A DNA stretch of 64,000 nucleotides from an uncultured delta proteobacterium (GTDB taxonomy: Bacteria > Desulfobacterota > Binatia > Binatales > Binataceae): positions 3,744,001 to 3,808,000 of the forward strand of contig CAWEEQ010000004.1 in assembly GCA_963808235.1 (NCBI GenBank), written 5' to 3'. Below, in pieces: positions 1 through 14,406 of the stretch (position 1 is the stretch's first letter; the number at the start of each line of letters is the position of its first letter). Below the pieces are notes generated by a model that was given only the letters and a program-made list of their open reading frames with translations, ran no database searches and was not told the DNA's origin. Position numbers and translations under genes: made by a program.

Positions 1-1083
1 ACGACCATCGGCGCGGCCAATTATCTGCTCAACGAAAATGAGCATCTCGGACGCGCGCTCAGGGCTCGGGCGCGGCGATGGCTCCGGCGCTGGACGGTGT
101 CGGACGGGCTGGTCGATCCCGAGCCGGCGGCGATTGCGGCGCTCGGACGTCATCAGATGTCGGCGCGTTCCTATTCGCCGACCGCGTTGCAGAACTTCGC
201 CGCCTGCCCGTATCGATTTTTCCTGCAAGCGATTCATCGGCTGGAGCCGCGCGAGGAACCCGAAGCGATCGAGGCGCTCGATCCGCTGACGCGGGGCGGA
301 CTGTTTGCGGAAGTTCAATACGAAATCCTGTCGGCGCTGCGCGAGATCGAAGCGTTGCCGGTCACGCCGGAAACTCTCGACGACGCATTCGATTTGCTCG
401 ACGAGCAGTTGGAGAAAGTCGCGGCGAGTTCACATGACAAGCTGGCGCCCGCGATCGAGCGGGTCTGGCGCGATGGAATCGACTCGATCCGTGCCGACTT
501 GCGTGAATGGCTCCGGCGCGCGGCAAGCGATCCGGAGCACTGGCGGCCCGAATGGTTCGAGCTTGGGTTCGGACTGAGCGATCGGGAGCAGGCGGATCCG
601 CGCAGTTCGACGGCGCCGGTTGAAATCGAAGGCGGTCTTCGCTTGCGCGGGTCGATCGATCTGCTCGAGCGCGATCCGGCGGGACGAATTCGAGTGACCG
701 ATCACAAGACCGGAAAAGTCCGCGCCGCGAAGAATTTCGTGATCGGCGGAGGCAAGACTCTGCAGCCGGTTTTTTATGCGCTCGCCGCGGAAAAGGTTTT
801 GCACGAGCCGATATACGCGGGACGCCTTTATTACTGCACAGCGACCGGCGGCTACGAGGAGCGCGTGGTCGAGATCGACGAACGCGCGCGAATCGCGGCG
901 CGCGATTTCGCCACGATCGTCAGAGAGGCTCTGGAGGCGGGTTTCCTGCCCGCCGCGCCGGATGCTCGAGAATGCGATTGGTGCGACTACAAGCGCGTCT
1001 GCGGACCATACGAGGAGCGGCGCGTGGCGATGAAACCCAAAGCGCGGCTTGCGTCGCTCAAGAAGCTTCGCGAGATGTCGTGA
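1..1083 (+). CDS. addB: AddB/RexB-like PD-(D/E)XK nuclease subunit, C-terminal part (gene runs off the left edge)
   Basis: Frame 1 is open from base 1. Motifs SPTALQNFAACPYRFF, RGSIDLLE...VTDHKTG, LQPVFY and CDWCDYKRVC (Fe-S staple cysteines). Directly upstream of a UvrD-family helicase-nuclease. Confidence 0.8.
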   Translation, partial: TTIGAANYLLNENEHLGRALRARARRWLRRWTVSDGLVDPEPAAIAALGRHQMSARSYSPTALQNFAACPYRFFLQAIHRLEPREEPEAIEALDPLTRGGLFAEVQYEILSALREIEALPVTPETLDDAFDLLDEQLEKVAASSHDKLAPAIERVWRDGIDSIRADLREWLRRAASDPEHWRPEWFELGFGLSDREQADPRSSTAPVEIEGGLRLRGSIDLLERDPAGRIRVTDHKTGKVRAAKNFVIGGGKTLQPVFYALAAEKVLHEPIYAGRLYYCTATGGYEERVVEIDERARIAARDFATIVREALEAGFLPAAPDARECDWCDYKRVCGPYEERRVAMKPKARLASLKKLREMS

Positions 1084-1088
1084 CCCCG

Positions 1089-4000
1089 ATGAATACGACC
1101 AGCATCGCCGATCAGCAGGTGCGCGCGCGGATTCGCGACGACCTCGAAACCACCCTGGTGATCGAGGCGGCGGCAGGAACCGGCAAGACGACGGCGCTGG
1201 TGAATCGAATCGTGTCGGTGGTCGGCTCAGGGCGGGGCGAACTCGCGCGGATCGTCGCGGTGACGTTCACCGAGAAAGCGGCGGGCGAGTTGAAGCTCCG
1301 ACTGCGCGGCGAGATCGAGCAGGCGCGTCATGCGCCCGGACTTACTCGCGAGGTCAGCGCGCGCCTTGACGAAGCGCTCCGGCAACTCGAAGAAGCGCGA
1401 ATCGGCACGATTCATTCTTTTTGCGCAGACCTGCTGCGCGAGCGGCCGGTGGAGGCGCAGGTCGATCCGCGGTTCGAAGTCGCGCCCGAGGAAATCTCCG
1501 GGGAGATGTTCGACGCGGCGTTCGATCGATGGTTCGAAAAGGTGCTCGCCAATCCCGGCGAAGGGATGCGCCGATTGCTCAGGAGGCGCGACTTGTCGGC
1601 GCGCAGCGGTCCGCGAGCGATCGCGCGGCGCGCGGCGAACGAACTTCTGAACTGGCGCGACTTCGATACGCCGTGGCAACCCTCGCCGCTCGCGCGGGAC
1701 GGCGAGATCGACGCGATCGTCGCCGAAGTTGAGGCGCTGGGCGAACTCGCACGCACCGCGGAGCCTGACGACTGGCTGGGCAAGGGCCTCGACGCGATCG
1801 CGCGTCCGGTGCGTGAAGCGACCCGCCTGGAAGCGGTGCGGGGCCGCGACTACGACGCGCTCGAAGCGGTGCTGGTATCGCTCGCGACCGGCAGGCGCTG
1901 GGAGTGGAAGGGATACGGAGGCGGATTTGGCGATGTCGAGCGCGGCGAAGTTTTCCGCCGGCGCGCCGAGTTGCACGAGCGGCTCAAGAAGTTCCGTGAC
2001 GACGCGGGGGCAAATCTGGCGCCGATTCTGCGCGAAGAATTGTGGCCGATGGTCGCGATCTACGAAGACATGAAGCGGCGCGCGGGCCGGCTCGATTTCC
2101 TCGACTTGCTGCTGGTCGCGCGCAATCTCGTCCGCGACAATCCGGCGGTGCGCGCTGAATTGCAGGATCGATTCACGCACATCTTTGTCGATGAATTCCA
2201 GGATACCGATCCGCTGCAGGCGGAAATTCTGCTCCTGCTCTCGTCCGCAGATCCCGTCGAGTCGAATTGGCGGCAAGTACAACCGCGTCCGGGCAAGCTG
2301 TTTATCGTCGGCGATCCCAAGCAATCGATTTACCGTTTCCGCCGCGCCGACGTTTCGCTCTACCAGGACGTGAAACAAATGCTGCTCAGCCGCGGCGCCG
2401 CGCTCGAGAATCTCACCGTGAGTTTTCGCGCGACGCCTCAGATTCAAGATGCGGTGAATGCGGCATTTGCGCCGTTGATGAGCGAGGAATCGCGCACGCA
2501 GCCGGTCTATGCGCCGTTGACGCCGTTTCGTGCCGGTGTGGAGACACAACCCTCGATCGTCGTGCTCCCGGTGCCGGAGCCGTACGGCGATTTCGGGCGC
2601 GTGGTTGATTGGAAGATCGACGAGTCGATTCCCGAGGCGATTGCCGCGTATGCGCGATGGCTCGTGGTCGAGAGCGGATGGACGGTGACCGAGCGCGAGG
2701 CGCCCGAGGTGCGGGTGCCGATTCGTCCCCGGCACATATGTATTTTGTTCCGCCGCATGAATTCGTTCGGACGCGACGTGACGCGGCCTTATTTGCGCGC
2801 GCTCGAAGCGCGCCATCTGCCGCATGTGCTGGTCAAGGGTGGTTCATTCAACGAGCGCGAGGAAGTGATCGCGATCCGAAATCTGCTTGGTGCGATCGAA
2901 CGTCCCGAAGACGAGTTGCTGGTGTTTGCGGCGCTGCGCGGGCCGATCTTCGCGCTGTCGGATGCCGCGCTGCTCGAATTCCATGAGACGCAGGGCAGCC
3001 TGCATCCATTTCGCAAGCTGAAACCCGAGCCATCGCAAAGCGTTCTCGAAGTGAGCCGCGCGCTCGAGGTGATCAAGGGATTGCATCGCGGCCGAAATCG
3101 CCGCCCGATCGCGGAGACGCTCGCGATGCTGCTCGCGAAGACGCGCGCGCACGCGGGAATCGCTATTTGGCCGACCGGCGAGCAGGCGCTCGCGAATATC
3201 ATGCGAATCATGGATCAGGCGCGGCGCTACGAGGCGAGAAGCGGTGCGACGTCGTTTCGCGCGTTCGTCGATGAACTCGAAGCGCGCGCCGAGCGCGACG
3301 AAGCCAGCGAGACGCCGATTGTGGAGGAAGGCACGGAGGGCGTGCGCATCATGACGGTGCATCGCGCGAAGGGCCTTGAGTTCCCGGTCGTCATCTTCGC
3401 GGACCCGACTTGCAACGAGACGCGCGCGGAGGCGTCGCGATATATCGAGCCGGCCGGCAAAATCGCGGCGATGGAACTTGCGGGATGCGCGCCGCGCGAG
3501 CTCCAGGAGCATCGCGAAGAAGAGCATCGCCGCGACAAGGAGGAAGCGATCCGCCTGCTCTACGTGGCGGCGACTCGCGCGCGCGATCTGATCGTGGTGC
3601 CGGCGGTTGGCGATGAGCTGCCGGGAATTGGCGACGGCGAAGATGACGGATGGCTCGCCAAGCTGAGTCCGGTCGTTTTTCCGGCGACGGCAAATCGGCG
3701 GGCTCCGCTGACGCGGACTCCCGCGGGATGCCCGGATTTCGGCGACGACAGCGTGCTCACGCGGCCCAATCGCGCGCCGGACAAGATGAAGTCGGTAGCG
3801 CCGGGACTTCATCGCGCGACGGCGGGCGCTCACCAGGTCGTTTGGTGGGATCCTTCGCGGCTCATCTTGCATGTCGAAGAGGCGATGGGGCTCAGGCAGA
3901 ACAAGCTGCTGCAGGCCGACGAGAACAAGCTAATCTCGATCCGCGGAATGAAGACGCACGAGGTCTGGACCGCGAAAAGAGTGGAGATGTTGGCGGCGGG

Positions 4001-4562
4001 AATCGCGCCATCGATTACCGTCGCGACTGCGACCGAGCTTGCGATTGCGCAGCCGGCGATTGGGCTTGAATTTGCAGGCGAGATAGCGGTTGAAGAAACC
4101 CGGCGCGATCGCGGAAGGCCGCATGGCAAGCGCTTCGGCACGCTGGTGCATCTGACGATGCTCCGGGCGGGATTCGACGCCGGCGCGAGCGAGGTCGGCA
4201 TGATCGCGGCGAGCGCCGGCAGGATGATCGGCGCGTCGCCGGATGAAGTCGCCGCGGCGACGGCGGCGGTAGTCGCAGCGCTCGATTCGGCGCTTATCCG
4301 GCGCGCCAAGAGCGCGGACCTCGTGATGCGCGAGTGTCCGCTGATGGTGCGGCTCGAAGACGGCGTCATGCTCGAAGGTATCGCGGACCTGGCGTTTGCC
4401 GAGGGATCTAGGCGCGCCGCCAAGTGGACGGTGGTCGATTTCAAAACCGACCTCGAGATCGCGCCGCGGCTCGACGAGTATCGCGCCCAGATCGGTCTAT
4501 ATATGCACGCGATCACGCAAAGCACGCGCCGCCCGTCTACGGGCGCGATCTTGTGGATTTGA
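1089..4562 (+). CDS. addA: AddA/UvrD-family ATP-dependent helicase with C-terminal nuclease
   Basis: AAAGTGKT Walker A, TFTEKAA, TIHSF, DEFQD, GDPKQSIYRFR, MTVHRAKGLEF, LYVAATRAR, and C-terminal GIADL..VVDFKT..Q..LY. ATG 5 nt after the addB stop. Confidence 0.85.
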   Translation: MNTTSIADQQVRARIRDDLETTLVIEAAAGTGKTTALVNRIVSVVGSGRGELARIVAVTFTEKAAGELKLRLRGEIEQARHAPGLTREVSARLDEALRQLEEARIGTIHSFCADLLRERPVEAQVDPRFEVAPEEISGEMFDAAFDRWFEKVLANPGEGMRRLLRRRDLSARSGPRAIARRAANELLNWRDFDTPWQPSPLARDGEIDAIVAEVEALGELARTAEPDDWLGKGLDAIARPVREATRLEAVRGRDYDALEAVLVSLATGRRWEWKGYGGGFGDVERGEVFRRRAELHERLKKFRDDAGANLAPILREELWPMVAIYEDMKRRAGRLDFLDLLLVARNLVRDNPAVRAELQDRFTHIFVDEFQDTDPLQAEILLLLSSADPVESNWRQVQPRPGKLFIVGDPKQSIYRFRRADVSLYQDVKQMLLSRGAALENLTVSFRATPQIQDAVNAAFAPLMSEESRTQPVYAPLTPFRAGVETQPSIVVLPVPEPYGDFGRVVDWKIDESIPEAIAAYARWLVVESGWTVTEREAPEVRVPIRPRHICILFRRMNSFGRDVTRPYLRALEARHLPHVLVKGGSFNEREEVIAIRNLLGAIERPEDELLVFAALRGPIFALSDAALLEFHETQGSLHPFRKLKPEPSQSVLEVSRALEVIKGLHRGRNRRPIAETLAMLLAKTRAHAGIAIWPTGEQALANIMRIMDQARRYEARSGATSFRAFVDELEARAERDEASETPIVEEGTEGVRIMTVHRAKGLEFPVVIFADPTCNETRAEASRYIEPAGKIAAMELAGCAPRELQEHREEEHRRDKEEAIRLLYVAATRARDLIVVPAVGDELPGIGDGEDDGWLAKLSPVVFPATANRRAPLTRTPAGCPDFGDDSVLTRPNRAPDKMKSVAPGLHRATAGAHQVVWWDPSRLILHVEEAMGLRQNKLLQADENKLISIRGMKTHEVWTAKRVEMLAAGIAPSITVATATELAIAQPAIGLEFAGEIAVEETRRDRGRPHGKRFGTLVHLTMLRAGFDAGASEVGMIAASAGRMIGASPDEVAAATAAVVAALDSALIRRAKSADLVMRECPLMVRLEDGVMLEGIADLAFAEGSRRAAKWTVVDFKTDLEIAPRLDEYRAQIGLYMHAITQSTRRPSTGAILWI

Positions 4563-4580
4563 GTTTCTTGCCGACTGGTT

Positions 4581-4614
4581 CCCCTTCCCTCGAGGGAAGG
4601 GGTCAGGGGTTAGG
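4581..4614. repeat. 22-bp perfect palindrome CCCCTTCCCTCGAGGGAAGGGG plus TCAGGGGTTAGG tail (REP-like element or terminator after addA)
   Basis: Palindrome at 4581-4602 read directly. Resembles the CCCTCTCCC..GGGAGAGGG..GGGGTGAGG class of intergenic repeats. Confidence 0.5.
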
Positions 4615-4691
4615 TAGGCCCGGTCCCACTCGCGCCGCCAAATATCTTCCGCTATTGCTTTGTGGTCAAATCTCGATTGAGGCGACTATCG

Positions 4692-5790
4692 ATGGCAATA
4701 GACATTATATACGGAGAACGAGTGACCGAGGGCGTCGAGGCGGACGCGAACACCGGTGGGCTGTGGCTGAACGGCGCCGACCTCGAGCGCGTCTCGGGCT
4801 GGACGCATAAGGCCGCAGGGATTCTGCAAGGGCGAGGTCTGCGTGCCGGTGCCGGCCGCGCGCCAAAGTGAGTTCGTTCACGGCGACGATTACAACCTGG
4901 CGGCGCTCGCGGAGATGCTCGGGCAGCCGATGGTCGCCGACGCGGAAAATCACGCGTACTGCTTTGGCGAGGCTGCGGACGAGCGCAAGCGAATCCTGAC
5001 CTCGCTCGACGCGCCGGATTTCAGCTTGCCCGATCTCGACGGCCGGACGCATTCGCTGTCGAAGTATCGCGGCAAAAAAGTTCTTCTCGTTTCATGGGCC
5101 TCGTGGTGAGGATGCCGCTTCGACCTGCCAGTCTGGCAGGCTCTTTACGAAGAACTCGGACCGAGTGGATTTGTGCCAATCGCGATCGCATTTGACAGCG
5201 GCGGCAATGCTGCCACCGAGCCGTGGATCAAGGCGGCCAAGCCCACTTATCCGTGCCTTATCGATCGACGCCACGTGGTCGCCGAGCTTTACGATATGGT
5301 CAATGTGCCGACCGCGGTCTGGATCGACGAGCGCGGCAAGATTGTCCGGCCGAGCGAGCCCGCGGGCGTGACCGACGCGTTCCGCAAGATGAATCGGACC
5401 AACTTTTCGATTCCTACCGACGCGATGAACGAGCTGCAGGCCAAGCGCAAAGCGTACCTCGATGCGCTTCGCGACTGGGTAGCGAAAGGCGCCAAGAGCA
5501 GGTTCGCGCTCGACGGGGCCGAGGTGCTCCGCCGGATGCATACTCCCGACGCCAAACAGGTGCGCGCCGCCGCAAACTTCCGGCTCGGCGAATATCTGTT
5601 CGAGCACGGCCACGCGGCTGCGGCGCAAAAGTATTTCGAAGAAGCGAAGCGGCTTCGTCCGGAGAGCTGGAATTACAAGCGCCAGGCATGGGCGCTCGAA
5701 GATCCGATGAAACCGGGCGGGCCCGAGTTCTGGGCCGCGGTCGATTCGCTCGGCGAAGGGAAATACTACCCCGGTGCCGAAGACATATAG
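4692..5790 (+). CDS. Thioredoxin-fold (ResA/TlpA-like, WAxxUGC motif) selenoprotein; Sec at TGA 5107-5109; apparent +1 frameshift at ~4812
   Basis: Three ORF pieces join. MAIDIIY...WTHK, one extra G at ~4812, PQGFCKGEVCVPVP...APDFSLPDLDG...KVLLVSWASW-TGA-GCRFDLPVWQ, continuing in frame into ORF 5173-5790. SECIS-like hairpin follows the TGA. Confidence 0.85.
5124..5140 (+). promoter_or_regulatory. Putative bacterial SECIS hairpin
   Basis: CCTGCCA-GTC-TGGCAGG stem-loop beginning 14 nt after the in-frame TGA. G-first apical loop resembles the E. coli fdhF SECIS minihelix. Confidence 0.75.
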
Positions 5791-6679
5791 CAATCGCGAG
5801 ATCCTGGTCGTGGGATATGGATCGTTGCTGAGCGGATACGGCCTGCTCGCGCAGCGGCGCGGCGGGGCGAGCCGGCTAATCGCGCGCGACGTCGAGCGGG
5901 TCTCGATTCGTAACGCGCGGCGCGGACTCGCCAAGCCGTCGAGTCACGGCAGTTACCTCGCGATGGATATCGAACCGGTCGATCGACGAGCGTCGATTAC
6001 CGCATCGACTGGACTGGGCGGCGTCGGAATCGGCGGCCTGCTTCTGACTTTCGATCGCGAGTGCGCGCCGCTGATTGCGCGGCGCGAGGAATACGAGGCC
6101 GGCGCGTTCGAGCGGCTGATTGGGCTGGCCGATCGCGCGGGCGTCCCGCTCGGCGAATACCTGATGGAGCTCGCAAGCGGAACGAATTTCGATCTGCTCG
6201 CGTATCGAATCGCACTCCGCACGATGCTCGGCTACACGTCGCCCGGCTACATTTTCCATCCGATCCAAATCGACGACGGGCGTATCGCGATAATCGCGAT
6301 AGGGTCAGGATTTGAAGGGAGCGGAGATCCGCGGATTGTGTCGCGGCGCCAGCAATTCGGGATGGATCGACTGCTCACGCTCGACGAGGCGCTGCGGCTC
6401 GAAATTCCCGATTTCGACCGCGCCGGACAAATCGGCTACTACGCCGAATGTCTGCTCGGCGGACTGCACGGAGTGGCGGTCGGCGATCTCGCGAATCGGT
6501 TCGACCCGGACGCTCCGTGGCTGCGCGAGCTCGACGATCACTTCGCACGAGTGGCGAGTGGCGAGCGGGCAAGATTTATCGAGGCCACCTCTCTGGATGA
6601 CGCGCGTTACGAGGCAAGGTTTTCCAGCCGTCATGAAAACCTTGCCGCGCTTCTGAAAACCGCGAGCGTGGAACCATGA
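5774..6679 (+). CDS. Hypothetical protein with gamma-glutamylcyclotransferase-like N-terminal motif
   Basis: 301-aa ORF starting ILVVGYGSLL (GGCT/ChaC-like YGSL), later RREEY. Overlaps both neighbours. Confidence 0.55.
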   Translation: MPKTYSNREILVVGYGSLLSGYGLLAQRRGGASRLIARDVERVSIRNARRGLAKPSSHGSYLAMDIEPVDRRASITASTGLGGVGIGGLLLTFDRECAPLIARREEYEAGAFERLIGLADRAGVPLGEYLMELASGTNFDLLAYRIALRTMLGYTSPGYIFHPIQIDDGRIAIIAIGSGFEGSGDPRIVSRRQQFGMDRLLTLDEALRLEIPDFDRAGQIGYYAECLLGGLHGVAVGDLANRFDPDAPWLRELDDHFARVASGERARFIEATSLDDARYEARFSSRHENLAALLKTASVEP

Positions 6680-7185
6680 CGACGCCTGTCGACTCGAAAT
6701 TTTCGATTCACGTGGCGAAGGAAAATCTGAAATTCTCCGCCGCGCATTTCATCGCCTATCCGGGATTCCGCGAGCCGCTGCATGGCCACAACTACCAGGT
6801 CGGTGTTTACGTCGAAGGCAAGCTCGCAAGCACCGGCTACGTGATCGATTTCGGGCTGATCAAAAAACTTACCAAAGAGATCGTCGATCGACTCGACGAG
6901 CGAACGATCATCCCGGCCAACAGCGATTGCCTGAAAATTGAAGGACCCAAGGACGGGAAGGTGCGAATCTTTTACGAGCGCGACGAGTTCGTGCTCCCCG
7001 CGGCCGACGTATGCCTGGTTCCGATCGTGCACAGCTCGGCGGAGGAACTCGCACGCTACATATGGAACGAGCTGGCGGCGGCGCTGATCGCACGCGGTGC
7101 ACTCAGGGAAGTGACGACGATGGAAATTTCAGTGGCCGAGGGTCCCGGCCAGTCGGCGCACTATCGCAGTCAGACCTCCTCCTAA
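6676..7185 (+). CDS. queD: 6-pyruvoyl-tetrahydropterin synthase / QueD family protein
   Basis: FSAAHF, LHGHNY, GYVIDFG and SSAEELA motifs; ATGA overlap with the upstream gene. Confidence 0.8.
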   Translation: MTTPVDSKFSIHVAKENLKFSAAHFIAYPGFREPLHGHNYQVGVYVEGKLASTGYVIDFGLIKKLTKEIVDRLDERTIIPANSDCLKIEGPKDGKVRIFYERDEFVLPAADVCLVPIVHSSAEELARYIWNELAAALIARGALREVTTMEISVAEGPGQSAHYRSQTSS

Positions 7186-7229
7186 GCTGAAGTTCATTCC
7201 GCGCGGGCGCAATTGCGATGGCGATCTCG
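7140..7229 (+). repeat. 90-bp direct repeat, left copy (includes the last 46 nt of the queD-like gene)
   Basis: GGGTCCCGGCC...GCGATCTCG is identical to 12650-12739; flanking bases differ. Confidence 0.95.
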
Positions 7230-7304: not shown

Positions 7305-7682
7305 TCAATCTCCTATTTTAATCGCTTCCGCGGTGCATGCGACTCTGGACCAACAGTCTCTAAGCAGCGCTCCCCCAGTGCCGCTCCCGCACGTGACGTT
7401 GGTGATCCCATTGGCGCTCATCGCGCCGGCTTTAGTCCGCAGTTGATCGGTCACGCCTTGCTCGGTTGGTTGATCGTCCCACAGAGCGAATTTGCATGCG
7501 CTGGCATCGATCGGCCCGAGCGTAGTGTATTTGAGACTGGCGAGATCGCCGGGTTGATACACTTTCACCTGTGCGGTCTGCTCAGGTACCACAGGAATGC
7601 CTTCCCGCAAATTGCAGCCCGCGACGACCACTACCAATAGTCCAGTACTCAATCCAGACAACATATTTTTGTAGCTAATCAT
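7305..7682 (-). CDS. RcsF-like lipoprotein (125 aa)
   Basis: GAGG RBS then MISYK...LLVVVVAG-C lipobox. Mature part VKVY...YTTLGPIDASAC...A..MSANGI...C...DCWSRVACTAEAI has the 4-Cys pattern and layout of E. coli RcsF. Confidence 0.7.
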   Translation of the reverse strand: MISYKNMLSGLSTGLLVVVVAGCNLREGIPVVPEQTAQVKVYQPGDLASLKYTTLGPIDASACKFALWDDQPTEQGVTDQLRTKAGAMSANGITNVTCGSGTGGALLRDCWSRVACTAEAIKIGD

Positions 7683-8147
7683 CGCTAACCTCGAATTTCC
7701 GTTTTTGAAACCGGATTCATTCGCATCAAGACCACGCGTTTGAAAACACAAAGTTGGAGCCCGGATTTGATTCCAAATACTTTGCAGGGCACCGCACCCG
7801 GCGCGTTCTGCCTCGCCTTGGTAAAAGAACACCGAAACTGGTGGCTTTCCTCTCTGAATTGTTTATTCCCCGCCGTGGGAATATGGCTCGGAGTGTGACA
7901 CTCGCGCAAGCGAAACAGTCCGTAAGGGCTACCGTTGAAAGGAGAAACTGAATCTAGACGCCTCTTCGCTTGCCGGCGGGCTGGCCGGATGCGTGTACGC
8001 GCCGCATAAACTTGACGCTCATTTTCGAGCCTTGCGACGCGAAAAAGCTAAATATATAAGGCGTTGCACGTATAGACCGTCAAGAGGTGTCCTAGTACAC
8101 TGCCACTGGCGTTGCATTACGCTCGGCTCTGAAGTCTTTACAGGGAC

Positions 8148-11100
8148 ATGCGCTGTCTATCGTGCGGATACGAAAATCCGCCGGACCGCGAGGGGTTCTG
8201 CGGAAAATGTGGCGCATCCTTGGCCGCCACACCGTTCTCCACGTCGACTATCCGCCCGCAAGCAGCCCGGCCGCCATCACTTTCTTTCGGCTCAGGCCGC
8301 TATCGCGCGATTCGTCTGCTTGGCGAAGGCAGCAACAAGAGAGTCTACCTGGCCCGCGACACCAGTCTCGATCGCGACGTGGCCATCGCGGTCCTCAGGA
8401 CCGAAGGACTCGACGAGGCGGGATGCGCACGTGTCCGCCGCGAGGCGCGGGCCATGGCCAGGCTCGGTGACCATCCAAATGTCGTCACGGTCTACGATGT
8501 CGGCGAAGAAAATGGCCAGCCATTCATCGTCAGCCAGTACATGGCTGGAGGCACGGTCGAAGATTTACTGGCCCGGTCGGCGAATCACCGCTTGCCGGTT
8601 GATCAGGTGCTGAAAATCGCGCTCGAAGCCTGCGAGGCTTTGGGACACTCGCATTCGTGCGGCATCGTTCATCGCGATTTCAAACCGGGAAACATCTTTC
8701 TGACCCAGGACGGCAAGTGCAAACTGGGTGACTTCGGCCTCGCCCTAACGATTGGCCAATCGCGCCTGACGGCAGTCAACATAATCGTCGGCACGGTTAG
8801 TTACATGCCACCCGAAGGAATTCTTGGCAAGCCGCTCGACGCGCGCGGCGATCTCTACTCACTTGGGGCCACCCTATACGACATGATAACCGGCCAGCCG
8901 CCCTTCGTGGGCGATGACCTGCGGACGATTCTGGCCCAACATGTCAACAGGGAGCCAGTGCCCCCGTCAACGCTCGCTCCCGGAACGCCCCGCGCGCTAG
9001 ACGAAATCGTCCTGACACTTCTGAAAAAGGACCCCGCAGAACGGCCCCCGAACGCGACCGCAGTGCGAAACAGGCTGCGGATGCTGGCGGCCTCGCCGAA
9101 GACTTCGATGGAGTTGCTGGCGTCCAGCGTGATGCTGGAACGCCCAAATCTGGGCCTCCACCTAGCCCTGGGCGGAACGTACAGCATCCTGTTTTCGGAC
9201 ATAGAGAATTCGACCGCGATGAACGAGGCGCTCGGCGACCAGAAATTTCACGAAGTGCTTCAAATGCACAATTCGATCATCCGCGGGCAGGTCGAAAGTC
9301 ACGGCGGCTTTGAAGTCAAGTCAATGGGCGACGGATTCATGATCACATTCTCGAGCACGCGGCAAGCGCTGGAATGCGCGATCGGCATCCAGCGACAGCT
9401 CGCGGCCTACAGTGATCAGCATCCGAGACAGCCTATCCGCGTCCGAATCGGACTGCACGTTGGCGAGGCGATCAAGGAGGGCCGCGACTTCTTCGGCAGA
9501 AGCGTGAATATGGCCGCGCGGATCGGGGCCAAGGCTCAAGGCGGTACGATCCTGGTGTCTTCGACGTTCAAGGAAGTGACCGAGGGCAGCGGCGGCTTCC
9601 GCTTCGATCACGGCCGCGCGTTTGAACTGCAGGGCTTTTCGGGAATCCATCGCCTTTACCAAGTGGCCTGGCGGGATGAAGAACGCACCTGTCCCAATTG
9701 CTCGAAGCGAATTTCTGCATCATCTCACTCCTGTCCGAATTGTTCGATCTTGTTGCCCGCGATGCCATTTTCGACGCCTCCGGCACCGGACGAGGAGGTG
9801 CCGGCGGGCATCTGTAAGAAATGCGGCCGTGGGATTCCCGTCGATGCGCGCTTTTGTCCGTACTGCAGTGCTGACTTGACGCCACGTCCCGCGATAGTGC
9901 TCGAAGCCGACCAAGCCGCGGATCTTCAGCCAGATCCTGTCGCGCCGGCGTTGGTGCTCGGCGAGGGACAAGCCGCTGGTTTTCAGCATGGTCCTATCGC
10001 GTCTGGCCGAGCGGGGCGTGCATCAACACTTTTGGCGATTGGAGCGATCAGCATTTTCATTACCGCAATCGGCTTCACCGCAACCTACTACTACAAGGAC
10101 ACTTATCTGCCACGGCAGCGGGCGGCGGCCGAAGCTCGTGCCAAGACCGAGAAGGAGGCACAGGCGCAAGCCGCCGCGCAGGAAGCTGAAAGGGCAAAGA
10201 CGGCAGCAGCGACCGAGCAGACGCGACGCAAGGCTGCGGCGCAGCAACAGGCGGCCGCAGAGGAGCACTATGCGAAGTTGAACGTTCAGCTCGAGAAGGC
10301 TGTCGCCGCGGTCCGGCACGCGAAGGCGGGAAGCGAGGCGGAGAAACAGTTTCGCGAGAATGCGATCTCAATTGCGCTCCAGATGAATCCGCCGCCGGCG
10401 ATTCCAGAAGCGGCGCGCCAGCTGCTCAGCGAGGGTGATGGCACGATGAGTCGCGCAACGACCACCTTCGACTATAACGCGGCAGCCGAAAAATATCGCC
10501 GCGCGCTCTGGCTCGCACCATGGCTCGCCTCAGGCTATCAACGATTGGCTCAGGCCGAAGAGAAAGCCGGCAATCTGGAAGCGGCGGTCGGAGCGCTGAA
10601 CTACTGTAGCGCGGGGGTGCGCGACGCTTCGGCCCGCGCAGAGGTACTCAAGAAGGTTGTGGCGATCCAAGCCCAGATCGGAACATTGAAGAAAGAAGCT
10701 GAACTCAAACAAGAGGCGGAGGCGCAGGCCAGGCTCGAAGCATCGAAGAAGGAAGCCGAGCTCAAGCGACAGGCCGACGCACAGGCCAAGCTCGAAGCAT
10801 CGAACAAAGAAGCGGACCTCAAGAGACAGGCTGAAGCGCAGGCCAGGCTCGAAGCTTTGAAGAAGAATTCTGGGGAAGAACAATCCGACGAAAAGGGGAA
10901 TGACAAATCAGCCGAGAGCTCCAACCAAGCTTCTACGGAGCCGAAGTCTGGCGGTCCCCAAGTGCAAGCCGAGCCGAAACCAAAGCCGGAACCCTCTGAC
11001 CAAACCGCTCCTTGCGCCGCCGCTCTTGCGAGCAGGGACTACGCGGCGGCGCTGTCGTCATGTTCGACGGCCGCAGCCCAAGGTGATTCGCACGCGGAGA

Positions 11101-11489
11101 GCAACCTTGGCGTCATGTACCAAAACGGGCTCGGGGTGCCCAAGGACAACGCTGAGGCGCTCAACTGGTACCTCAAGGCGGCGGCCCAGGGGAACGCGGC
11201 TGCTCAGAATTCCTTGGGCGACGTGTACCTATACGGAGTCGGAGCACGGCAGAATTATATAGAAGCGCTGGACTGGTATCAGAAAGCCGCCAGGCAGGGC
11301 GTGGCGAATGCAATGTTCTCTCTGGGCTACATGTACGAGCAGGGTTTGGGTGTCGGGGTGGACAACACGCGGGCCGTTGAATGGTATCAAAAGGCCGCGA
11401 AGCTGGGCTCCGCTGAGGCGAAGAAACGGCTTGGTTCCGGAACCATTCCAAGCAACCCCGCAGTCTACACCAGCGATCCTTCGCCATGA
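8148..11489 (+). CDS. Membrane-anchored Ser/Thr kinase - class III nucleotide cyclase fusion with zinc ribbons, TPR-like helices and Sel1 repeats
   Basis: N-terminal CLSC..FCGKC; LGEGSNKRVY, HRDFKPGN, DFG, YMPPE; cyclase LFSDIENST, VKSMGDG, RIGLHVG, DFFGRSVNMAARI; CPNC..CPNC and CKKC..FCPYC; TM LLAIGAISIFITAIGFTATYYY; Sel1 repeats (NLGVMYQNGLGV..WY.KAA.QG). Confidence 0.9.
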   Translation: MRCLSCGYENPPDREGFCGKCGASLAATPFSTSTIRPQAARPPSLSFGSGRYRAIRLLGEGSNKRVYLARDTSLDRDVAIAVLRTEGLDEAGCARVRREARAMARLGDHPNVVTVYDVGEENGQPFIVSQYMAGGTVEDLLARSANHRLPVDQVLKIALEACEALGHSHSCGIVHRDFKPGNIFLTQDGKCKLGDFGLALTIGQSRLTAVNIIVGTVSYMPPEGILGKPLDARGDLYSLGATLYDMITGQPPFVGDDLRTILAQHVNREPVPPSTLAPGTPRALDEIVLTLLKKDPAERPPNATAVRNRLRMLAASPKTSMELLASSVMLERPNLGLHLALGGTYSILFSDIENSTAMNEALGDQKFHEVLQMHNSIIRGQVESHGGFEVKSMGDGFMITFSSTRQALECAIGIQRQLAAYSDQHPRQPIRVRIGLHVGEAIKEGRDFFGRSVNMAARIGAKAQGGTILVSSTFKEVTEGSGGFRFDHGRAFELQGFSGIHRLYQVAWRDEERTCPNCSKRISASSHSCPNCSILLPAMPFSTPPAPDEEVPAGICKKCGRGIPVDARFCPYCSADLTPRPAIVLEADQAADLQPDPVAPALVLGEGQAAGFQHGPIASGRAGRASTLLAIGAISIFITAIGFTATYYYKDTYLPRQRAAAEARAKTEKEAQAQAAAQEAERAKTAAATEQTRRKAAAQQQAAAEEHYAKLNVQLEKAVAAVRHAKAGSEAEKQFRENAISIALQMNPPPAIPEAARQLLSEGDGTMSRATTTFDYNAAAEKYRRALWLAPWLASGYQRLAQAEEKAGNLEAAVGALNYCSAGVRDASARAEVLKKVVAIQAQIGTLKKEAELKQEAEAQARLEASKKEAELKRQADAQAKLEASNKEADLKRQAEAQARLEALKKNSGEEQSDEKGNDKSAESSNQASTEPKSGGPQVQAEPKPKPEPSDQTAPCAAALASRDYAAALSSCSTAAAQGDSHAESNLGVMYQNGLGVPKDNAEALNWYLKAAAQGNAAAQNSLGDVYLYGVGARQNYIEALDWYQKAARQGVANAMFSLGYMYEQGLGVGVDNTRAVEWYQKAAKLGSAEAKKRLGSGTIPSNPAVYTSDPSP
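10689..10859 (+). repeat. Three 57-bp coding tandem repeats (19-aa unit KKEAELKRQAEAQARLEAS)
   Basis: Units start at 10689, 10746 and 10803. Confidence 0.85.
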
Positions 11490-11652
11490 CGTGAAGAAAT
11501 CTCTCGCGATTTTGTTCAGCCGAGCTTCAGAAGATCAAACGGTTTACTTGCAGCTAGCCCGCCGTCTGCCACTGTTGACACGTCTAAAGCGCGGTGACAG
11601 GATGTTTGCCGTTTCCGCCGTTTCGTCAGCAATTCAAGTCCGGGGGGAGTTT

Positions 11653-12102
11653 ATGAAGCGGTATCTCGTATTCCTTGTGGCTGTGCTTGGGTTGCAGAGC
11701 CATGGATGTGCTTCGATATTTTGGGGTACTCACCAGGATCTCTCCATTGACAGCACGCCAAGTGGGACGCTCGCCAGTCTCTCCGATGGACAGAGCTGTA
11801 CAACGCCATGCAAAGTTCGAATTTCGCGAGGAACCACATATGCGATCAAATTTTCGAAGGACAACTGTGTTGGCCAGACTGAAATGGTCTCCAGCACTGT
11901 ATCAGGGGGTGCAATGGCAGTTTCCTTGATAGGAATCCCGGCGGGTACAATCATTGATTACATGGACGGCGCTGTTTACAGCGCTGACCCAAATCCAGTG
12001 AGTTCCTCGCTTGAATGCAAGCTCCCGTCAGTAGCTAATGCTCCTGCACCTGAAGCTCCGGCGATACTTCCTACAAAAGCTTCGGCCTCTACCTCGCCCT
12101 AG
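11653..12102 (+). CDS. PEGA-like domain lipoprotein 1
   Basis: GGGAG RBS; MKRYLVFLVAVLGLQSHG-C; SIDSTPSG..CTTPC; hydrophobic segment then IIDYMDGAVY..PNPV. Confidence 0.75.
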   Translation: MKRYLVFLVAVLGLQSHGCASIFWGTHQDLSIDSTPSGTLASLSDGQSCTTPCKVRISRGTTYAIKFSKDNCVGQTEMVSSTVSGGAMAVSLIGIPAGTIIDYMDGAVYSADPNPVSSSLECKLPSVANAPAPEAPAILPTKASASTSP

Positions 12103-12152
12103 ACTTCGCGATTGATCCCAAGACCGAAGAGAATTCGGCCCAAGGAGTATCC

Positions 12153-12608
12153 ATGAAGAGACTTCTTGTATGCCTTGTCGCCGTGCTGGGACTGCTGAAT
12201 CATGGATGCGCTTCAGCTATTAGAGGAACTAGCGAAGACCTTTCCATCGAGAGCACACCGAATGCCGCGGTTGCAACTCTTTCTGACGGACAAACTTGTA
12301 CCACACCCTGCACGTTGCGAATTTCAAGAGGAAAAGCTTACGACGTCAAATTTTCAAAAAGCGGCTGCATCGACCAGACTGAAGTCGTTCAACCACATGC
12401 CTCGGGCAGTGGAGTAGCGGAAGCCCTTTTCCCGTTGTTGACCTATTCTCTGGTAGTCGATTCGATGAACGGAGCCATTTACGACGCCAAACCAAATCCC
12501 GTGACTTCGAACCTTCAATGTATGCCCTCATCTGAGCCCACCTTTTTGGCCCCGGTGACTTCATCGGCGTCCGCTCCCAAAGCCGCTGCGTCTGATTTGC
12601 CAAAGTGA
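12153..12608 (+). CDS. PEGA-like domain lipoprotein 2 (paralogue of the preceding gene)
   Basis: AAGGAG RBS; MKRLLVCLVAVLGLLNHG-C; SIESTPNA..LSDGQTCTTPC..ISRG..Y..KFSK; VVDSMNGAIY..PNPV. Confidence 0.75.
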   Translation: MKRLLVCLVAVLGLLNHGCASAIRGTSEDLSIESTPNAAVATLSDGQTCTTPCTLRISRGKAYDVKFSKSGCIDQTEVVQPHASGSGVAEALFPLLTYSLVVDSMNGAIYDAKPNPVTSNLQCMPSSEPTFLAPVTSSASAPKAAASDLPK

Positions 12609-12649: not shown

Positions 12650-12739
12650 GGGTCCCGGCCAGTCGGCGCACTATCGCAGTCAGACCTCCTCCTAAGCTGA
12701 AGTTCATTCCGCGCGGGCGCAATTGCGATGGCGATCTCG
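12650..12739 (+). repeat. 90-bp direct repeat, right copy
   Basis: Identical to 7140-7229. Confidence 0.95.
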
Positions 12740-12902
12740 CGATTGCCGATTCGAGTGCCCCGCGTGACTAAAAGTCGATTTGCGTTCACCTTTCCTGCTC
12801 ACCAACGGTCCATAGTCTGTCAACCGCAAGCGTATCGTGCGACGATCTTCCTGCAGCGCGGCGGCGGCCTTTAATCGCCGGTTGCGGGGGAAGATCGAGG
12901 GG

Positions 12903-13940
12903 GTGTCTGTCCAGCCGAAATTCATGGAGCCCGAAGCTCCTTTTGCGGTCGAGCGGGTCCTCGTTGGAGAGCATCCCGCGATCGTCAAGCTGCGCGCTCT
13001 GATCGAGCGCGTCGCCCCAACCGAGGCGACCGTGCTGATCATCGGTGAGAGCGGGACCGGCAAAGAAGTGGTCGCGCAGGCGATTCACGCACTCTCGCCG
13101 CGGAACCTGATGCCGTTTGTGCCGGTGAACTGCGCCGCGATTCCTCACGACCTGCTTGAATCCGAAATGTTTGGACATGAGCGGGGCGCATTCACCGGCG
13201 CCGCTGGATCGCGCCATGGGCTTCTGACTACCGCCGATAAAGGCACGATCTTTCTCGACGAAATCGGCGAGATGCCCAATGGCTTGCAGGCCAAGCTGCT
13301 GCGCGTGCTGGAAGACGGCGCGGTGCGGCCAGTCGGCTCCGATCGCGCGAGCCGGGTAAACGTGCGGGTGATTGCCGCGAGCAATGTCGATCTCGCCAAA
13401 GCGGTTGACAAGGGTGCGTTTCGCGCCGACCTTTTCTACCGGCTGCAAGTCGTGCCGATCGTGATTCCTCCGATGCGCGAGCGGCGATCGGATACTCCGC
13501 TGCTCACCGAATTTTTCCTCGATCGGGTTCGCGATCGCACTCCCGGCCGGAGCATCGCAATCAGCCGCGAGGCGATGGTGGCGCTGTGGTCTTACGATTG
13601 GCCGGGCAACGTGCGCGAGCTCGAGCATATGGTCGAGCGGCTGGCGATCCTGTGCGAAGATTCGATCATCGACATTCCGCTACTGCCCGAGAGCCTCGCG
13701 CTTGGCGCGCGTCCGGCGGCGGCCCCGATTCCAGTCCGGCTTGGCGAGACTGGGGTGAACCTCAACGACTTGGTACGGGAATTGGAGGGTAGACTGATAA
13801 ACGATGCACTAAAGCAGAGCGGAGGAAACAAACAGGCTGCGGCGCGACTGCTCGGACTGAAGCGGACGACATTTTCCGCGAAGCTGCGGCGCTGCGGCGT
13901 GATAGCTACGGCATCTTCGGACGAGAACGAGGAAGACTAG
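12903..13940 (+). CDS. Sigma-54-dependent transcriptional activator (AAA+ and Fis HTH, no N-terminal sensory domain); start uncertain (12903 GTG or 12924 ATG)
   Basis: [46 protein letters not shown], and [20 protein letters not shown]. Confidence 0.9.
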
Positions 13941-13956
13941 CCGGGCAAGGATTGGT

Positions 13957-14406
13957 ATGGACGAAGCAATCAGAGCGCCCCAGATAATGATCGTTGACGA
14001 CGATCAGGACACAGTTGCAATCCTGGCGCGGCATCTGCAACGCGAAGGCTTTGTCCCAATAGAAGCCCACTCCGGCGCCCAGTGTCTCAAACTGGTACTG
14101 GAGAACGAAGTCGACGTGATCCTGCTCGATCTCATGATGCCGGAGATGGACGGGTTCCAGGTGGTCAAAGAACTCAGGAAAAATCCCGTCACCGCGGAGA
14201 TCCCGATAATCATGATCACCGCGCGCGACGACCTGGACGCGCGGGCTGAGGGGATGCGCCTCGGGGTCAGCGACTTCCTTGCCAAGCCGGTGTTCCGCCG
14301 TCAGCTCGCGAGCCGGGTCCGCGCGCAGCTGGAGGTGGTGGAGACGGCGCGCAACGCGACGGCCGCGATGGATCGACTCGACGCGGCCACCAAGCGGTCG
14401 CACTAA
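13957..14406 (+). CDS. Single-domain response regulator (receiver)
   Basis: IMIVDDD, ILLDLMMPEMDG, ITAR, FLAKP. Confidence 0.9.
   Translation: MDEAIRAPQIMIVDDDQDTVAILARHLQREGFVPIEAHSGAQCLKLVLENEVDVILLDLMMPEMDGFQVVKELRKNPVTAEIPIIMITARDDLDARAEGMRLGVSDFLAKPVFRRQLASRVRAQLEVVETARNATAAMDRLDAATKRSH

Follow-up and report, generated by a model that had tools for sequence, protein, structure and literature searches.

The window analysed here is a stretch of 64,000 nucleotides on contig 4 of the genome of an uncultured bacterium of the Binataceae (G000), a metagenome-type assembly of 4.59 Mb in 4 contigs, 93% complete. Near its left end, four genes lie between two direct repeats of 90 nucleotides. One, on the reverse strand, encodes a lipoprotein of 125 amino acids that resembles RcsF (7305-7682); the next three, on the forward strand, encode a receptor of 1113 amino acids that combines a kinase and a cyclase (8148-11489), and two lipoproteins of 149 and 151 amino acids that resemble PEGA domains (11653-12102 and 12153-12608). 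No further open reading frame of at least 60 amino acids was credited as a gene in the block. The repeats, at positions 7140-7229 and 12650-12739, are 100% identical, with a spacing of 5510 nucleotides, and the sequence has only these 2 copies in the whole 4.59-Mb genome. An earlier note on this DNA, called here the original prediction, described four genes confined between identical 90-bp repeats, and this description holds: all four reading frames are open.

Homologues bear names such as Candidatus Binataceae and Candidatus Binatus, and the genome belongs in or near Candidatus Binatus. The block is a strain-specific insertion of 5.4 kb between a PTPS/QueD-like gene and the gene of a sigma-54 activator. 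On the left, the PTPS-like gene (6676-7185; Pfam PTPS, E-value 1.9e-23) runs into the first repeat, which consists of the last 46 nucleotides of the gene and 44 nucleotides of spacer, all of it native target sequence; on the right, the native spacer runs on from the second repeat to the activator gene (12837-13940). This activator directly follows the PTPS-like gene in 20 of 22 other genomes of the genus whose PTPS locus was compared, or in 19 of 20 if two unpublished genomes (G023 and G018) are set aside. The closest relative, G019, has a PTPS-like gene of 92% identity and an empty site: its sequence matches continuously from the left flank, through a single copy of the 90 nucleotides, to the right flank. 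The empty site and the adjacency of the two genes in the genus indicate that the 5.4 kb were inserted, and that the repeat is a duplicated native sequence. Flanking direct repeats of the target sequence and empty sites in relatives are both found here, as is expected of an integrative island. The simplest reading is that the block probably entered as a circular molecule, recombining through the 90-bp sequence that now stands at both ends. Since Pfam detects no integrase or recombinase among the four products, integration mediated by a tRNA or an integrase was dropped; transposition of the block by an insertion sequence was also dropped, the four genes including no transposase and the 90-bp repeat being native sequence.

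RcsF is the textbook outer-membrane lipoprotein that senses envelope damage, and is regarded as confined to enterobacteria and their Rcs phosphorelay. The RcsF-like protein of the window has a canonical lipobox (LLVVVVAG-C23), and only about 14 residues separate the lipid-bearing cysteine from the folded domain. Family models give it low scores: Pfam RcsF (PF16358) matches at E = 5.8e-6 with 26.7 bits, below the cut-off of 29 (26.2 bits in the search of the whole genome), and the NCBIfam equivalog NF008048 at 24.9 bits, far from its cut-off of 140. A search of the PDB with the single sequence returns RcsF only, in 5 of 5 matches with a best E-value of 0.0025, and the profile of a family of 103 members reaches E. 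coli RcsF at 3.1e-16, the next chain that is not RcsF standing at 0.14. The AlphaFold2 model computed from the 103-row alignment has a predicted local distance difference test score (pLDDT) of 81 overall, and of more than 90 over residues 40-100 and 111-125; it replaces a model based on 13 close relatives, whose pLDDT was 44.7. Searched with Foldseek, the model finds E. coli RcsF at ranks 1 to 5 (2y1b, 9biy_B, 2l8y, and chains C and D of 6t1w), with E-values from 1.3e-6 to 1.2e-4 and target-normalised TM-scores of 0.72-0.86; the best match, 2y1b at E = 1.3e-6, superposes over 87 columns with a TM-score of 0.85 and a root-mean-square deviation of 1.8 Å. Four cysteines, C63, C98, C110 and C116, are invariant in 15 of 15 sequences and align with the disulfide cysteines of RcsF, and the cysteine of the lipobox is conserved as well.

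The predicted structure and the profile match together establish a genuine RcsF fold for this protein, the very property whose absence the original prediction had named as fatal to its proposal. That prediction had also remarked that no partner of the Rcs relay lies in the window, and this can be extended for one of them: IgaA (PF07095) has 0 matches in the whole genome, at 93% completeness, in a search that covered IgaA alone of these partners, and whose control was positive in E. coli only of 14 genomes. Any signalling by the RcsF-like protein must thus use another partner, and is not that of the Rcs relay.

The family to which this protein belongs is large. A profile search of 1.84 billion representative sequences yields 571 clusters (at 50% identity) with E-values of at most 0.001, and 192 with E-values of at most 1e-10. 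Of the best 149 new clusters, 91 have lengths of 100-180 amino acids and 27 of 300-400; a lipobox-like motif is seen in 80 of 89 stand-alone family members. Ten long proteins were scanned for other domains: six contain a trypsin-like peptidase, one of them with OmpH in addition, two a caspase, one DUF4410, and one nothing further. In the long fusions (P0138, P0159, P0177, P0182, P0192, P0194, P0141, P0240 and P0145), which have 260-560 amino acids, the RcsF-like domain is N-terminal and is followed by S1, C14, OmpH or DUF4410. Judging from these arrangements, periplasmic or outer-membrane proteins may use the RcsF fold as a general module. The neighbours of the family in the ESM Atlas include a cluster automatically named RcsF family, in which 17% of the members have PF16358, and which is to be taken as a lead only. 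In the literature searched, no paper was found that uses the term "RcsF-like"; a 2026 study (PMC13614576) reports that broad searches gave very few unique homologues.

The receptor gene is separated from the divergent RcsF-like gene by 465 bp (7683-8147, GC content 0.52), presumably the site of both promoters, although no sigma-70-like promoter match was found in this interval. Its product begins with a putative zinc ribbon of the form CxxC...CxxC (residues 3-22), followed by a Hanks kinase (residues 52-304, DNA 8301-9059; Pfam Pkinase, E = 1.2e-46), a class III adenylyl cyclase (residues 346-498, DNA 9183-9641; Pfam Guanylate_cyc, E = 6e-20) and further zinc ribbons recognised by Pfam (residues 512-577). 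The sole hydrophobic segment, a predicted transmembrane helix at residues 626-648 (DNA 10023-10091), places the kinase and the cyclase in the cytoplasm and residues 649-1113 in the periplasm. The periplasmic part is a stalk rich in alanine, glutamate and lysine, then a low-complexity linker, then three stretches of Sel1 repeats at about residues 975-1096 (DNA 11070-11435; Pfam, 4.8e-33), whose best solved relatives are the Sel1 proteins 4bwr and 6ok3. The stalk includes three tandem units of 57 nucleotides (10668-10865), with 77-80% identity between copies, that encode 19-residue repeats of the form KKEAELK.QA.AQA.LEAS. The architecture put forward in the original prediction is recovered in all its parts, ribbons, kinase, cyclase, single transmembrane helix, stalk and Sel1, save the TPR: Pfam reports Sel1 repeats only.

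The kinase has an unusual active site. Its closest solved relatives are PknB (E = 9e-56) and StkP (E = 2e-49), and it has the Pkinase domain with both the HRD motif (H175-R176-D177, with N182) and the DFG motif (D195-F196-G197), which are invariant in the family alignment. The catalytic lysine expected in strand beta3 (VAIK) is absent: in the alignment to PknB, the beta3 lysine K40 faces A81, and a lysine, K64, occupies the third glycine of the glycine loop (GEGSNK). The same arrangement extends to the homologues. Among the best 120, HRD is found in 120 and DFG in 117; a regular expression detects the lysine in the glycine loop together with alanine or serine at beta3 in 101, and it was also seen in 12 inspected of the 19 that do not match. 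Three other kinases of the window's genome are canonical (GxGxxG and VA[IV]K). According to Kannan et al. 2007 (PMC1821047), no functional eukaryotic protein kinases other than WNK have the lysine displaced to the third glycine of GxGxxG, and in the literature searched we found no description of a bacterial WNK-type arrangement. The receptor kinase may thus be described as having a WNK-type lysine placement with its other catalytic motifs intact; its activity is predicted. Since its nearest solved relatives are of the PknB type, the shift of the lysine is most simply convergent with that of WNK.

The cyclase is 50% identical over 167 residues to the mycobacterial Ma1120 (PDB 4wp9, E = 3e-45). 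With respect to this protein, D351, K391, D395, D447, N454 and R458 are all in place, residues that we take to be the two metal-binding aspartates, the lysine and aspartate that recognise the substrate, and the asparagine and arginine of the transition state; the domain is thus a predicted class III cyclase with a complete active site. On kinase-cyclase fusions, nothing relevant was found in the literature searched.

The first PEGA-like gene starts 163 nucleotides past the stop codon of the receptor gene, and the second 50 nucleotides past the first. Their products are paralogous, with 52% identity, and match Pfam PEGA (PF08308) at 17.5 and 20.0 bits, both below the cut-off of 20.8. PF08308 is precomputed in 4 of 8 metagenome relatives, and the nearest ESM Atlas clusters of the second protein, with scores of 0.96-0.97, have PEGA in 51-60% of their members. 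The pair matches no NCBIfam family and no solved structure in the PDB; metagenome homologues of the second protein reach 88-89% identity. The lipoboxes of both are off-consensus, with a histidine at position -2 (SHGC and NHGC); the Gly-Cys is nevertheless kept in all 14 aligned relatives, and their lipoboxes are ordinary (ASGC, LSGC, FAGC). A third, distant PEGA-like lipoprotein is encoded elsewhere in the same genome (L035:9395-9889, at about 178.4 kb of contig G000:C4), near a large NHL-repeat-like protein, an NtrC-type regulator and Tad-pilus-like membrane genes, with no RcsF-like gene nearby.

By its predicted domains, the receptor belongs, as one variant, to a large Binatia family in which a constant kinase-cyclase cassette is joined to varying C-terminal modules. 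At E-values of at most 1e-10, 3,811 of the 8,000 candidate proteins scored match it. The modules of the best 120 homologues, read from precomputed Pfam lists, are SPOR (PF05036) in 30, PF13211 in 30, AAA_16 with TPR in 44 (long cytoplasmic proteins of a STAND-like type), Sel1 in 4 (two of which lack the cyclase), TonB_C in 1, TPR only in 1 and nothing further in 10. An envelope-type or repeat module thus follows the cassette in 66 of the 120. A metagenome protein (P0014) is a full-length orthologue of the receptor, with 81% identity at 98% coverage. Within the genus, the best match, in G008, is 53% identical and covers residues 1-546 only. The window's genome has 7 Pkinase matches, and the receptor is the only one of them joined to a cyclase. 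The main Binatota genome paper mentions none of the terms kinase, signal transduction and lipoprotein.

We now turn to the neighbours of these genes in other genomes, where the original prediction had expected a conserved linkage. RcsF-like genes are sporadic: they are found in 6 of 47 genomes of the genus, in 21 of 165 genomes of the family (7 of its 30 genera), and in 12 of 401 genomes of the class, all in this same family, or 17 of 401 with a broader profile. The 21 genomes of the family fall into four groups: the window's genome with its islet, 2 in which the gene is linked to a PEGA-like gene, 6 in which it has neither partner, and 12 in which it belongs to a cluster with a kinase and a PHP phosphoesterase. 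In the second group (G051 and G054), the PEGA-like gene is immediately upstream of the RcsF-like gene, on the same strand and 29-124 nucleotides apart, in an apparent operon. The expected linkage thus holds in part: the four-part set is found in no other genome of those searched, and two partial linkages recur, of RcsF-like with PEGA-like genes, and of RcsF-like genes with bitopic kinases.

The cluster of the last group encodes, in order, an FHA membrane protein, a transmembrane protein with a zinc ribbon, a bitopic Hanks kinase, a PHP phosphoesterase and the RcsF-like protein. Next to it come the genes of a luciferase-like oxidoreductase and, convergent, of a ClC channel. It is listed in twelve genomes of four genera, unpublished ones included. 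We verified it in 8 published genomes of 3 other genera (G063, G432, G183, G199, G438, G439, G440, G457) and in the unpublished G390, G469 and G470; the unpublished G244 is listed only. The PHP and RcsF-like genes of G199 share an overlap of 4 nucleotides. The window's genome has the orthologous kinase-PHP locus without an RcsF-like gene.

Two side observations concern this cluster. Its kinase (L100:6-1484, L098:7583-9106) has the glycine loop GGGGMK, with the beta3 lysine replaced (CAFAE or CALAE) and HRD and DFG intact. A gene for a ClC-type channel is convergent to the kinase/PHP cluster, with or without the RcsF-like gene, in every genome examined (L098:11135-13153 and L100:2133-3650, both on the reverse strand, L097, L099). 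Eukaryotic WNK kinases are sensitive to chloride; the pairing of a WNK-type kinase with a ClC channel is curious, and may be a coincidence.

Metagenomes contribute two sets of proteins. The first consists of an RcsF-like protein (P0003, 75% identical) and two PEGA-like proteins (P0285 and P0286, 88% and 59%), for each of which the longest contig has 19,168 bp. The second includes P0289, of 229 amino acids, in which a stretch of 87 residues with 77% identity to the receptor stalk (residues 667-749, DNA 10146-10394) is fused in one frame to a PEGA-like domain, and P0013, a frameshifted fragment of an RcsF-like protein whose contig has the same size and source. Equal size and source hint that each set lies on one contig. 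Two further contigs also concern close relatives: one of 6,640 bp encodes the receptor homologue of 81% identity, and one of 373 kb an RcsF-like protein of 85% identity. The fusion in P0289 implies that the order of receptor, then PEGA-like gene, existed in another lineage; as its sequence reads, P0289 looks like a decayed relative of the islet in which most of the receptor gene has been deleted. In G010, a PEGA-like gene starts 221 nucleotides from the beginning of its contig, and these 221 nucleotides contain no Sel1-like reading frame.

The insertion site has its own history. In G014, another species of the genus and the exception to the adjacency of the two genes, the equivalent spacer between the PTPS-like gene and the activator (L078, G014:C65:4000-20000) holds, at positions 623-5541, a different insertion of about 4.9 kb that encodes a SmaI-like endonuclease, an N4/N6 methylase, an IS1595 transposase and a DUF3800 protein, and contains a direct repeat of 90 nucleotides with 83% identity (2580-2669 and 5395-5484). 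Two unlike insertions at the same place make the site an insertion hot spot. The sigma-54 activator that borders it has AAA+ and helix-turn-helix domains with only about 40 residues ahead of them, and the protein of 149 amino acids that follows (region 12837-14406) looks, by eye, like a stand-alone receiver domain.

It is natural to conjecture that the four genes form a portable sensor-receptor cassette, where lipoproteins of the envelope would report to the bitopic kinase-cyclase; we give this reading a probability of roughly two in five. The receptor would join a periplasmic Sel1 module, carried on a coiled-coil stalk, through one transmembrane helix to two cytoplasmic outputs: a Hanks kinase with its catalytic lysine in the glycine loop, and a class III adenylyl cyclase that would be active only as a dimer. 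The lipoproteins, one with the RcsF fold and two PEGA-like, would form the envelope-side part of the device. They would convey the state of the outer membrane or of the cell wall to the receptor ectodomain, directly or via a shared envelope ligand, and an altered pairing of the stalks would then set kinase autophosphorylation and the synthesis of cyclic AMP together. The evidence suggests that the four genes work as one system; we infer every physical contact, signal and coupling of the two outputs, and the binding of a lipoprotein to the Sel1 ectodomain is pure conjecture. A prediction of a three-chain complex (ectodomain 735-1113, second PEGA-like protein 20-125, RcsF-like protein 24-125), run without controls, gave no verdict (score 0.00, mark 0.32), and speaks neither for nor against binding.

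The data would be explained nearly as well if the block were independent cargo: a kinase-cyclase paralogue and a separate envelope module, made of the RcsF-like and PEGA-like lipoproteins, that merely travel together. Many observations side with this explanation and weigh against a cassette. The exact four-gene composition has no second locus among the genomes and loci searched, and no kinase-cyclase-Sel1 gene lies near the other RcsF-like loci examined. Around the lipoprotein pair of G051 and G054, about 9-10 kb are free of kinase and cyclase genes; in G002, G016, G046, G410 (two copies) and G420 (split), the RcsF-like gene has neither partner nearby, and the same is true of a frameshifted copy in G271, the closest to that of the window at 62%. 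Conversely, no RcsF-like or PEGA-like gene adjoins the closest kinase-cyclase homologues of the genus, those of G008 and G004. In metagenomes, 6 of 6 loci of RcsF-like relatives with 60-75% identity are without partner, four of them having less than 2.5 kb of flank, while one of the six, which extends 5 kb on each side, has housekeeping neighbours. PEGA-like genes are also commoner than RcsF-like genes (17 of 41 genomes for 5 of 41), and within the block the RcsF-like gene is divergent from the receptor gene. The content of G and C at third codon positions is 0.49-0.60 in the lipoprotein genes, 0.69 in the receptor gene and 0.73 in the flanking genes, a gap between lipoproteins and receptor that hints at a mosaic origin. 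The site, being a general hot spot, accommodates unrelated cargo such as the restriction-modification pair, IS1595 transposase and DUF3800 protein of G014. The kinase/PHP/RcsF-like cluster is one inherited locus, and counts as one event rather than eight; the tail of its kinase is not Sel1, with about 110 periplasmic residues, and no docking domain common to both receptors is evident. Finally, P0289 and the frameshifted P0013 suggest that the block decays in some lineages. As for the two copies in G410 (L094 and L095, at the ends of G410:C1 and G410:C2), their scores are identical, and they are probably one repeated or doubly assembled region.

Three observations count against independent cargo. 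By our own estimate, a random gene would stand beside a kinase with a chance of about 1% in a genome with only 7 Pkinase matches in 4.59 Mb, so a kinase that adjoins the RcsF-like gene is unlikely by chance. A second, independent arrangement of an RcsF-like gene with a bitopic kinase exists in other genera. The order of receptor and PEGA-like gene seen in P0289 has been kept through 23-36% protein divergence. Since RcsF-like genes thus stand twice beside bitopic kinases of the WNK type, and several times beside PEGA-like genes, and since the adjacency has a chance of only about 1%, the portable cassette is narrowly favoured.

An anti-phage role is improbable. The receptor would then be a kinase like that of PD-T4-6, fused to a nucleotide cyclase and acting by abortive infection from a defence hot spot, and some matches do lead there: PADLOC models of PD-T4-6 align with residues 46-320 (E = 2e-86), the NCBIfam models of the MADS6 and PglW kinases match weakly, and the equivalent site of G014 holds a SmaI-like restriction enzyme with its methylase. 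However, the PADLOC matches, obtained without a cut-off, cover the generic kinase domain only (for example positions 12-290 of a model of 510), the three lipoproteins match 0 PADLOC families each, and the nearest relative of the cyclase is Ma1120, an adenylyl cyclase of the housekeeping type. The large Sel1 domain in the periplasm, in a family that swaps cell-wall modules such as SPOR, also fits the sensing of the envelope better than that of a cytoplasmic invader.

The assembly itself was compared with contigs, short and of low depth, from 4 DNA sequencing runs of one study, which may be the source sample; no RNA run was among them. Pieces of the insert occur in contigs of all 4 runs with 0 differences. 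None of the run contigs listed bridges either junction or displays an empty-site or circular joint. Contigs of two runs (X1 and X2) join position 12191 to position 7073 with one extra letter, a joint that excision between the 90-bp repeats does not account for. The product of 12153-12608 has an exact copy on a contig of 5,480 bp, the size of the unique insert of 5,420 bp with 30 nucleotides of repeat at each end, as expected of a short-read assembly that breaks at both repeats. That the insert was misjoined at the repeat, from another replicon or strain, is therefore very improbable: the unbridged junctions and the metagenome-type assembly, 93% complete in 4 contigs, would allow it, but the repeat is native to exactly this site, the flanks continue correctly on both sides, and the pieces without differences and the contig of 5,480 bp agree with the assembled block.

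The portable cassette, if it is one, raises a wider question about RcsF. The fold and its four cysteines occur in an uncultured soil phylum, in a genome where IgaA was not found, beside Hanks kinases, and in hundreds of sequence clusters of which some are fused to periplasmic proteases. One may then imagine that RcsF is a late offshoot of an old and widespread family of envelope lipoproteins; that, in Binataceae, such proteins are outer-membrane sensors for bitopic Hanks kinases of the WNK type; and that the islet is a portable cassette turning the status of the outer membrane or cell wall into phosphorylation and cyclic AMP, an eukaryote-style counterpart of RcsF-IgaA-RcsCDB. We regard this whole picture as unlikely. 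If a lipoprotein does report to the kinase-cyclase, evolution would have connected one general envelope sensor, the RcsF fold, to quite different transducers, and the islet would offer a workable way to learn what this fold responds to. The kinase family, with its lysine placed as in WNK, would then also put that unusual active site to a natural test in bacteria.

Several components of the block have known counterparts from which they depart. E. coli RcsF is, like the protein of the window, a lipoprotein of about 125-134 amino acids with the same fold and four disulfide cysteines that align; the two have only about 20% identity, the protein of the window scores below the Pfam and NCBIfam cut-offs, and its short segment ahead of the domain contrasts with the long linker of E. 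coli RcsF. Its gene neighbours are Hanks kinases and PEGA-like lipoproteins rather than Rcs genes, in a genome without an IgaA match. Eukaryotic WNK kinases, like the receptor, carry their catalytic lysine where GxGxxG has its third glycine, and show no specific sequence kinship with it. PASTA kinases of the PknB and StkP type have, like the receptor, a cytoplasmic kinase, one transmembrane helix and repeats that face the envelope; in the receptor, the sensor is Sel1 on a coiled coil, the cyclase and zinc ribbons stand between kinase and membrane, and alanine replaces the beta3 lysine of PknB. Ma1120 is a stand-alone soluble cyclase. NCBIfam already names an architecture in which a kinase is fused to a cyclase, that of the TOMM kinase/cyclase fusion family (TIGR03903), of which the receptor is not a member: it scores 122.3 bits for a cut-off of 705.75, and the block has no TOMM genes. 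Finally, the periplasmic Sel1 regulators and adaptors ExoR, MotX and AlgK, together with 4bwr and 6ok3, also expose Sel1 repeats to the periplasm as a module of protein-protein contact; NCBIfam matches to them are weak and far below the cut-offs, and in the receptor such repeats are covalently joined to enzymatic outputs.

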